Source of the DNA: a virus
Reading direction: 5' to 3' (one strand)
Virus record (IMG/VR): IMGVR_UViG_3300025834_000005
Length of the DNA stretch: 64,000 nt
Shown here in pieces: positions 23,855 through 24,048 of this stretch (the stretch's first letter is position 1; each line of letters starts with the position of its first letter). Below the pieces are notes generated by a model. That model did no database searches and had not been told where the DNA came from. It was given only the letters and a program-made list of their open reading frames with translations. The translations under genes were made by a program, and so were the position numbers.

Positions 23855-23885
23855 TTGCACATGTGATTTATTTGAATTACTTTTG
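23855..23885 (+). promoter_or_regulatory. Promoter of cassette C (TTGCAC-N-TACTTTTG)
   Basis: tatacTTGCACatgtgatttatttgaatTACTTTTGtgcc. Confidence 0.5.
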
Positions 23886-23913
23886 TGCCAGTTAAAATAA
23901 TTAAAAAATAGAA

Positions 23914-23991
23914 ATGATGAATGCAACACTTAAATACGGAAAGACTACTAAATCTTATAAAAAATATAAGATGAAGAAGGACTGTGTGTAA
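23914..23991 (+). CDS. Leader mini-ORF C (25 aa, MMNATLKYGKTTKSYKKYKMKKDCV)
   Basis: 8 Lys (AAA/AAG) and 3 Tyr (TAC/TAT) codons. The downstream array encodes only tRNA-Lys(UUU, UUU, CUU) and tRNA-Tyr(GUA x2). Confidence 0.5.
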   Translation: MMNATLKYGKTTKSYKKYKMKKDCV

Positions 23992-24015
23992 GTGAACTAT
24001 ATATAATATATTCAA

Positions 24016-24048
24016 AAACCCAGTCTTAATTTAAGTCTGGGTTTTTTT
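24016..24048 (+). terminator. Intrinsic terminator of cassette C
   Basis: aacccagtcttaa / ttaagtctgggtt stem with one mismatch, followed by T7. Confidence 0.7.

Follow-up and report, generated by a model that had tools for sequence, protein, structure and literature searches.

The DNA analysed here, the window, is a stretch of 64,000 nucleotides (nt) from the IMG/VR virus record IMGVR_UViG_3300025834_000005, taken as one strand from 5' to 3'. Its G+C content is 33%, and it encodes at least 37 transfer RNA (tRNA) genes, every one on the plus strand, together with a class II ribonucleotide reductase and several homing endonucleases. Four cassettes with a common architecture lie in the window (cassettes A to D, Table 1), each composed of a Bacteroidetes-type promoter, a short leader open reading frame (ORF), an intrinsic terminator and a tRNA array. 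The subject of this work is cassette C (23836-24048), whose leader precedes genes for tRNA-Lys and tRNA-Tyr. Comparative sequence analysis establishes its parts and their conservation, the match between leader codons and tRNAs, and co-varying alternative pairings; on this basis, we regard cassette C as very probably a ribosome-mediated (leader-peptide) transcription attenuator that gates the phage tRNA-Lys/tRNA-Tyr operon.

Table 1. Cassette C, its sibling cassettes and neighbouring features of the window.
Feature	Position	Strand	Details
Cassette A	14871-15038		Leader MRTIFNIVPQHQPQQLKSFQSNG; array Pro, Pro, Pro, His, Gln, Gln
Cassette B	18648-18899		Leader ...MELLAVEQVNLLLWADEDTLCNAG; array Asp, Asp, Glu, Leu x4, Val, Ala, Gly
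Cassette C	23836-24048		Leader MMNATLKYGKTTKSYKKYKMKKDCV; array Lys x3, Tyr
Cassette D	35510-35825		Leader ...NISSSVTISGITTRSSRSCNGMSMFNRIFTGINTGI...; array Cys, Ile, Ser, Phe, Gly, Met, Asn, Thr, Arg
Upstream promoter element and -33 element, cassette C	23836-23859	+	24-mer AATTATTTACTATTTATAYTTGCA; CTTG at 23854-23857
-7 promoter element, cassette C	23878-23885	+	TACTTTTG; agrees with Bacteroidetes-type TAnnTTTG
Leader ORF, cassette C	23914-23991	+	25 codons + TAA; ATG 23914, TAA 23989-23991; encodes MMNATLKYGKTTKSYKKYKMKKDCV
Segment 1 (anti-antiterminator 5' strand)	23927-23939	+	Includes codons AAA-TAC-GGA
Segment 2	23978-23994	+	23982-23994 pairs with segment 1; 23978-23988 (AGGACUGUGUG) pairs with terminator 5' arm
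Intrinsic terminator, cassette C	24017-24048	+	-12.4 kcal/mol; T tract (T7) 24042-24048
tRNA-Lys(UUU), C33 variant	24063-24134	+	Rfam 53.5 bits; missed by ARAGORN; anticodon loop CCUUUAA
tRNA-Lys(UUU)	24151-24222	+	71.3 bits
tRNA-Lys(CUU)	24231-24305	+	54.5 bits
Aberrant tRNA-Tyr-like element	24380-24475	+	GUA anticodon stem-loop, T arm, acceptor stem
tRNA-Tyr(GUA)	24486-24566	+	25.1 bits, under Rfam threshold 29
HNH / GIY-YIG homing-endonuclease gene	15143-15667	+	Inside or between tRNA arrays
HNH / GIY-YIG homing-endonuclease gene	20592-21527	-	Inside or between tRNA arrays
HNH / GIY-YIG homing-endonuclease gene	24538-25221	-	Inside or between tRNA arrays

The leader ORF of cassette C is rich in lysine and tyrosine codons, as the initial annotation had pointed out: 11 of its 25 codons (numbers 7, 8, 10, 13, 15-19, 21 and 22) are AAA (four), AAG (four), TAC (one) or TAT (two). 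Such an ORF could belong to an ordinary small gene with its own terminator, in which case the Lys/Tyr content would be a by-product of A-rich DNA, and constitutive leak-through or a promoter that escaped recognition would supply the tRNAs. At 33% G+C, AAA and TAT are indeed common triplets. However, when all ATG-started ORFs of 15-60 codons in the six frames of this same A-rich window were ranked (n = 567), leader C came out as the most extreme, with a Lys+Tyr share of 0.44 against a mean of 0.10, and it is also enriched relative to the composition of the family proteome (Lys/Tyr at 11 of 24 codons, 0.13 expected; binomial p = 1e-4). Its ATG lies in an A-rich context without a Shine-Dalgarno sequence, as do the starts of the real genes of the window, where a Shine-Dalgarno core is found at 1 of 50 long ORFs. 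Homologues of the leader are present in ~20 relatives, in which its start and stop frame is retained.

A-richness also cannot yield the enrichment for Pro/His/Gln, for Asp/Glu/Leu/Val/Ala or for Ile/Ser/Thr-type residues that is seen in the other leaders. For cassettes A to D, the enrichment of each leader for the amino acids of its own array corresponds to z-scores of 4.9, 1.7, 4.7 and 4.1, respectively. All 12 mismatched leader-array pairings score at most 0.4, and the true assignment tops the 24 permutations (15.4 versus 6.2 for the runner-up). Leader D contains a block of 35 consecutive codons, 34 of them from the set of its own array, that lists nine amino acids. In all four leaders, each codon for a cognate residue is readable by the array anticodons under strict wobble rules, as exemplified by ATA-Ile(UAU), AGA-Arg(UCU), CGC-Arg(ACG) and AGT-Ser(GCU). 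Taken together, the cassettes account for at least 19 of the 20 amino acids; a tRNA-Trp was not found in the window, and leader B nevertheless has one Trp codon.

The array behind leader C had been described as two tRNA-Lys(UUU), one tRNA-Lys(CUU) and two tRNA-Tyr(GUA) genes. All three tRNA-Lys genes and one tRNA-Tyr(GUA) stand, the latter because it can be aligned with genuine tRNA-Tyr genes of relatives and has a normal orthologue at 4510-4592 of L209, a 237.6-kilobase (kb) metagenome contig that was found in a metagenome scan and is a closer relative of the window. The second tRNA-Tyr is not a normal tRNA: the sequence at 24380-24475 has no normal D arm, carries a very long variable region and falls within a 174-nt insert (24306-24480) that L209 does not have. 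It is an aberrant tRNA-like element and not a confirmed tRNA.

The closest relatives of the window, as judged by the ribonucleotide reductase, are ~80 IMG/VR contigs of up to 363 kb with 60-70% amino-acid identity; the uncultured phage LR745206.1 (634,780 base pairs, bp) has 64% identity in the same protein. Near-identical DNA was not found among GenBank phages, and a search for relatives through a 955-amino-acid and a 79-amino-acid protein of the window found none. The relatives' cassettes discussed below come from loci around homologues of the ATP-grasp gene and the ribonucleotide reductase. An automatic leader screen, which looked for terminators no more than 160 nt ahead of a tRNA and kept the longest ORF that ended shortly before each, returned 56 distinct ORFs from these relatives, ~47 of them recognisable leaders, with individual enrichment p-values down to 3e-9. 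Across ~45 further cassettes in related huge-phage contigs, the composition of the leader tracks its own array. Permuting the arrays among 51 leaders 20,000 times gave 37.5 +/- 13 and at most 94, against 153 observed; the resulting figure of none in 20,000 is indicative and not an exact probability, because the cassettes are phylogenetically related. For 20 of 20 amino acids, the mean leader frequency is higher if the matching tRNA is in the array than if it is not, for example 21% versus 5% for Lys, 13% versus 2% for Tyr, 11% versus 0.3% for Pro and 16% versus 1.4% for Gln.

A conserved leader of 22-31 codons, such as MRTFGTYYYGKKSYKKQLIGIGNTMTKGKR, precedes the Lys/Tyr arrays of ~20 relatives, and arrays that are regrouped in other relatives bring correspondingly regrouped leaders. 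In L005, an array of Gln and Leu only follows the leader MKNSVNILLQQLQLLQLRSCGRFCIM with its codon block LLQQLQLLQL, and in LR745206.1 the array Pro, Asp x4, Pro, Gln x3 is preceded by the leader block ...PVNPQPQDQDP.... Contig L189 contains both a Thr, Arg, Ile array with the leader block ITRITRKRRTT and a second array (Asn, Phe, Ile, Ser, Gly, Leu, Cys) with the leader NLNNNFCNLNSNSISGSNFFGSC. That the leader-array match follows the arrays through such regrouping again speaks against an ordinary small gene. As a negative-control set we used 262 arrays in 119 unrelated phage loci, collected from viral contigs with a generic tRNA-Lys DNA pattern. They yielded no leader comparable to those above (best p ~8e-4), and no recognisable terminator follows any of the control ORFs within the downstream sequence given.

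In contig L209, the leader is 100% identical to that of the window. The identity extends from the -33 element through the second tRNA-Lys over ~385 nt (23846-24230 of the window, 4041-4430 of L209); the sequence immediately upstream is scrambled, and the neighbouring coding regions are 79-84% identical. This pattern points to very strong constraint on cassette C or to a recent exchange of the cassette. Since the two leaders are identical, the comparison shows constraint and adds no covariation.

Conservation of the leader could also mean that its product matters, either as a basic, Lys/Tyr-rich micropeptide acting in trans or through nascent-chain arrest, so that the composition would reflect peptide function. 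The peptide motif KSYKK is conserved in relatives, and leader peptides that act in trans are described, for instance peTrpL (PMC7298713). Against such a function, it is the composition that is kept and not the order of residues (PQHQPQQ, PQPQQHPQ and PQQHPQ in different leaders), and the composition tracks array content for all 20 amino acids. Part of the peptide conservation is moreover conservation of RNA: the sequence GAATCGGG is translated in another frame in L128 and L173 (MESG versus IGIGN), where a 1-nt gap shifts the frame past the codon block. A functional micropeptide is therefore a very improbable explanation of the leader.

Downstream of the leader ORF, the terminator stem of cassette C (24017-24043) reads AACCCAGTCTTA-ATT-TAAGTCTGGGTT and contains a single T.T mismatch, because of which a consensus terminator scan missed it. 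Its 5' arm (segment 3) spans 24017-24028, its loop 24029-24031 and its 3' arm (segment 4) 24032-24043. Two competing pairings are predicted. In the first, segments 1 and 2 form an anti-antiterminator hairpin (23927-23994, with 23927-23939 pairing to 23982-23994) of -19.1 kcal/mol and a z-score of -6.35; the stop codon of the leader sits within segment 2. In the second, segment 2 pairs with the terminator arm. The initial annotation had proposed that GACTG (23980-23984) pairs with CAGTC (24021-24025), and this pairing recurs here as part of a longer helix between 23978-23988 and 24019-24027 (-10.1 kcal/mol). With these predicted helices, cassette C has the classic 1:2, 2:3, 3:4 layout of an attenuator.

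The pairing between ORF and terminator arm is also supported at the level of the family. In the Lys/Tyr leaders of relatives, the sequence GGAATCGGG lies in the ORF a few codons past the Lys/Tyr block, and the terminator, AACCCGATTC-loop-GATTCGGGTTTTTT, has a 5' arm complementary to this ORF segment. Changes in the terminator arm across relatives are accompanied by matching changes in the ORF segment, such that GAAGATCAG is combined with the arm CCCTGATCTTC in L135, GTGAAGATCGG with CCTGATCTTCAC in L189, CTGGATCAGG with CCCTGATTCAG in L195 and AAGGACTG with CAGTCTT in the window. In an alignment of 20 Lys/Tyr sequences, the antiterminator helix is 95% paired, with compensatory changes at 3 of 8 pairs; sliding one strand in the same alignment lowers the pairing to at most 60%, and RNAalifold, run unguided, returned this helix as the sole consensus structure. 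Over all cassette types, the best duplex between ORF and terminator arm has a median z-score of -3.15 relative to shuffled ORFs, with z < -2 in 70% of cases, and its position is always just downstream of the codon block. The helix between segments 1 and 2 is 82% paired in relatives, with compensatory changes at 9 of 18 pairs, and an anti-antiterminator is not evident in every cassette type.

The antiterminator segment is thus conserved as RNA, because L128 and L173 read its bases in a different frame, and the Lys/Tyr block as codons. A further conceivable explanation is a riboswitch that works without translation and binds tRNA directly, as T-boxes do, with leader triplets pairing to the anticodons of the array. 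T-boxes contain no ORF; their specifier codon and T-box sequence bind uncharged tRNA directly, and their targets are aminoacyl-tRNA synthetase and amino-acid genes, mainly in Firmicutes. Such a device would likewise couple tRNA status to the choice between terminator and antiterminator, and cassette C would share with T-boxes this choice, the sensing of tRNA status and the location upstream of translation-related genes. However, the element matched neither a T-box, with its Stem I specifier loop and T-box sequence, nor any other Rfam family, in a scan of the window at gathering score and in one of 23700-24700 at E <= 10. The presumed sensor of cassette C is, unlike that of a T-box, an ORF: the triplets lie in a single ATG-to-stop frame that is kept in all relatives, and alignment gaps inside the Lys/Tyr leader ORFs are mostly multiples of three, the 1-nt gap of L128 and L173 shifting the frame only past the codon block. 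Finally, codon blocks of up to 35 codons and nine amino acids are incompatible with a single specifier. Taken together, we consider direct binding of tRNA the least probable of the explanations examined, and an extremely unlikely one.

The sequence upstream of the leader contains a predicted promoter. The 24-mer AATTATTTACTATTTATAYTTGCA has a second copy ahead of cassette B (18608-18631), which makes two matches in the window where none is expected, and the exact sequence TTACYTTTGTRCC occurs four times in the window (14871, 18648, 23877 and 35510), each time ahead of a leader ORF. TAnnTTTG, with which the -7 element agrees, is the consensus of Bacteroidetes sigma-A promoters, and transcription of cassette C is predicted to start near 23891. 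Scans for sigma-70-type promoters returned 86 sites where 81 were expected and 113 where 87 +/- 10 were expected; none of the sites was linked to a cassette. Since only 14 nt (24049-24062) separate the terminator of cassette C from the first tRNA, a promoter between the two was rejected. In cassettes B and D, the motif TTTGACATGTTGGAATT lies between the terminator and the first tRNA (18916-18932 and 35854-35870, respectively), and relatives carry the version ttctttgacatgttggaaat (at ~14710 in L002 and ~13630 in L003). It was also considered as a conventional promoter and rejected, because the tRNA begins 18-23 nt past its TTGACA, which is too near.

The transcription signals also complete the case of an ordinary small gene. 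Its terminator, given the mismatch, could simply leak, and since the sigma-70-type scan is uninformative here, a promoter of another type is conceivable. Against this stand the 14-nt spacing between terminator and tRNA and the co-variation of ORF and terminator, on top of the compositional evidence given above, and we judge this explanation to be improbable.

We then folded transcripts with a masked ribosome, cutting them before the 3' arm of the terminator and masking 31 nt for each position of the A site. In the window, the 1:2 hairpin forms if no ribosome is present and leaves the terminator 5' arm free, so that termination is expected. An A site on codons 2-18 lets 9 nt of the arm pair with 23978-23988, so that read-through would follow. 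On codons 19-23 the ribosome covers segment 2, which leaves the arm free, and from codon 24 to the stop the arm is engaged only in a weak 6-nt pairing with 23941-23946; both situations should result in termination. Among 48 cassettes folded in this way, a stretch of ~10 codons in which the antiterminator is blocked starts right after the last regulatory codon.

These results suggest the following mechanism for cassette C. Host RNA polymerase would start near the predicted site, and a ribosome would then translate the 25-codon leader, with ribosome and polymerase coupled in time. If Lys and Tyr codons are decoded fast, the ribosome would reach the end of the ORF and cover segment 2, which would re-pair with segment 1 after ribosome release. 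Covered or re-paired, segment 2 would leave the terminator to form, and transcription would end 14 nt before the first tRNA. If decoding of Lys or Tyr is slow, the ribosome would linger on codons 7-18 and occupy segment 1; the free segment 2 would pair with the terminator 5' arm, and polymerase would read into the tRNA genes. We infer that this amounts to a kinetic race, in which the time of transit through the codon block decides if segment 2 is covered before segment 3 is transcribed, and read-through thereby responds to decoding. Shortage of any single tRNA listed in the leader would open the whole operon, and the additional tRNA-Lys and tRNA-Tyr would restore the sensed quantity, providing negative feedback on tRNA supply.

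The idea of a sensor that combines a cognate-codon leader with a choice between terminator and antiterminator, already put forward in the initial annotation, is supported by the three siblings that match their own arrays, by the ~45 cassettes of relatives and by the co-varying pairing. The leader ORF with its start context, the cognate codons, the terminator, the antiterminator and the anti-antiterminator that characterise ribosome-mediated attenuators are all recognisable in the sequence of cassette C; the geometry of stalling agrees for codons 7-18 and for the end of the ORF, but not for codons 19, 21 and 22. The initial annotation also reasoned that tRNA-Lys is a target of anticodon nucleases such as PrrC. 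This rationale is a hypothesis that the mechanism does not need: because the four cassettes jointly cover nearly the full set of amino acids, the device resembles a general gauge of tRNA supply more than a Lys-specific counter-defence. The C33 variants of tRNA-Lys(UUU) that are common in these arrays agree with the nuclease idea, if only loosely.

Several observations weigh against such an attenuator. The enrichment of leader B is marginal (p = 0.06). The antiterminator of the window is modest, consisting of 7 bp, a mismatch and 2 bp; as the initial annotation had suspected, it is weak by itself, since 11 of 200 shuffled ORFs equal its -10.1 kcal/mol (z = -2.0, marginally above chance), and it becomes credible because the family supports such a pairing. 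Among the Lys/Tyr codons, three (19, 21 and 22) out of 11 are placed such that a ribosome stalled there would mask segment 2 and favour termination. Full-length equilibrium folds of the window always favour the terminator, so that the switch must be kinetic. In the truncated-transcript model, the antiterminator forms without a ribosome in 73% of the family cassettes; a default 'off' state thus does not hold for all of them, and the precise logic may vary from cassette to cassette. Finally, starvation for amino acids also stalls ribosomes, and extra tRNA is of no help in that situation.

Some of these points could also be accommodated if the leader controlled the operon in another way. Its translation might shield the transcript from Rho or RNases, or set the processing of precursor tRNAs, with the hairpin serving as a processing or stability element. 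The constant preference for the terminator in equilibrium folding, the many family cassettes that are not 'off by default' in the simple model, and the conservation of TTTGACATGTTGGAATT between terminator and first tRNA in cassettes B and D would agree with this. Yet the hairpins have the canonical form of a G+C-rich stem with a T tract behind it, and shielding or processing has no need for a co-varying complementarity between the ORF and the 5' arm of the hairpin. We therefore regard this explanation, too, as unlikely, if marginally less so than an ordinary small gene, and retain transcription attenuation as the reading of cassette C.

Further elements accompany the leaders of some relatives. 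In L175 (7992-8045), L132 (8023-8120) and L187 (7983-8036), a second short ORF that is rich in Lys, Tyr and Asn, such as MKNRYKKAYFMKNVYYP, is placed between the first terminator and the tRNAs, which may point to attenuators in tandem. A small conserved hairpin, GCAAAAAUAAGCAAUGAUUUUUGC, surrounds the stop codon in many of the relatives' Lys/Tyr leaders, including those of L181 (5545-5580), L128, L184 and L199. It may be a pause hairpin for RNA polymerase, and it is absent from the window.

The tRNA genes themselves show several peculiarities. The C33 found in the first tRNA-Lys(UUU) of cassette C replaces an otherwise near-universal U, and it recurs in the arrays of relatives, in 12 of 41 Lys(UUU), 8 of 36 Asn(GUU) and 5 of 26 Ser(UGA) genes; such variants may be resistant to anticodon nucleases. 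The homing-endonuclease gene at 24538-25221, which runs on the opposite strand, shares 29 nt with the 3' end of the tRNA-Tyr gene. Further downstream, an amber-suppressor-type tRNA (CUA) with an encoded CCA end (25652-25726) follows a conserved 79-amino-acid ORF (25317-25556). Homologues of this ORF lie inside the Lys/Tyr array in relatives, and tRNA(CUA) genes are also present in L173, L189 and L209. Two tRNA-like genes of the window (19082-19154 and 37090-37165) have irregular anticodon loops and are assigned two-base 'anticodons' by ARAGORN; the one at 37090 scores 35.7 bits with Rfam.

With regard to the host, the TAnnTTTG promoter motif and the A-rich, Shine-Dalgarno-free gene starts of the window fit a member of the Bacteroidetes, and Bacteroidetes are the predicted hosts of the 'Mahaphage' genomes of more than 634 kb (PMC7162821). 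A scan of genome collections matched only L207 (GenBank JBAZIW010000001.1; 362,763 bp), which is labelled as a 'Candidatus Paceibacterota bacterium' metagenome-assembled genome, and therefore did not inform on the host. L207 has the same size as L175 (IMGVR_UViG_3300029288_000055) and equals it over the 8 kb compared. This huge-phage contig carries leader cassettes, and L207 is probably a phage genome mis-binned as a bacterium.

Ribosome-mediated attenuation is known from the leaders trpL, hisL, leuL and pheL, from the multivalent thrL and ilvL, and from pheST (pheM). Cassette C resembles these amino-acid operon attenuators in having a short ORF in the leader that contains a series of regulatory codons, an intrinsic terminator immediately ahead of the downstream genes and predicted mutually exclusive 1:2, 2:3 and 3:4 pairings; a stall would, as in those operons, free segment 2 and lead to read-through. 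As in trp, the leader stop codon lies inside segment 2. Unlike in amino-acid operons, the genes that would be regulated here are tRNA genes, so that the output would directly replace the sensed molecule, and a set of leaders in one genome splits the amino acids among its members, with up to nine per leader and blocks of ~35 codons. The cassettes are also virus-encoded and would respond to the amount of tRNA and not to amino-acid supply. A related case in cellular genomes is the Bacteroid-trp motif of Rfam, a predicted leader-peptide attenuator of tryptophan biosynthesis genes in Bacteroidetes. It has in common with cassette C the presumed host phylum, the TAnnTTTG promoter, Shine-Dalgarno-free starts and intrinsic terminators, but cassette C has no sequence or Rfam match to it.

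Why phages have tRNA genes, and when these are used, has been debated for fifty years, with codon compensation, the replacement of degraded host tRNAs and evasion of anticodon nucleases among the explanations put forward. The last of these hypotheses views phage tRNA arrays as a buffer against the loss of host tRNAs (PMC10264068), and the tRNA repertoires of huge phages have been described (PMC7162821). As in these studies, the tRNA set of the window is large and includes tRNA-Lys(UUU), the target of PrrC. Both treat the question of why phages carry tRNAs and not that of regulation, and mention neither leader ORFs nor attenuation; in the text of PMC7162821, 'attenuat' and 'leader' do not occur. 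A search of the full-text literature, with most subscription journals outside its scope, found no description of leader-peptide control of tRNA genes. To our knowledge, the target (tRNA genes), the multiplexed leaders and the viral setting are new compared with known attenuation.

We consider it likely that huge phages of Bacteroidetes gate their tRNA operons with meters of decoding speed, in which each leader lists the tRNAs of its own operon, the transit time of the ribosome sets read-through, and tRNAs in short supply are topped up, whether the shortage stems from decay of host tRNAs, attack by anticodon nucleases or the codon demand of the phage itself. If so, ribosome-mediated attenuation would for the first time be seen to act on tRNA genes, and a virus would for the first time be found to encode feedback control of tRNA supply. 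Textbook attenuation would thereby be extended to non-coding RNA genes, to multiplexing of up to nine amino acids and to viruses. The leaders may also be of practical use: synthetic biology could adopt them as compact, modular sensors of codon-specific translation speed, and their codon blocks would show, independent of annotation, which tRNAs share a transcription unit. If the proposed mechanism is true, each tRNA operon has a demand-driven switch with which the phage gauges decoding capacity codon by codon and answers shortage, a behaviour that can be tested with simple reporter constructs and that would favour replacement-type explanations of phage tRNAs.

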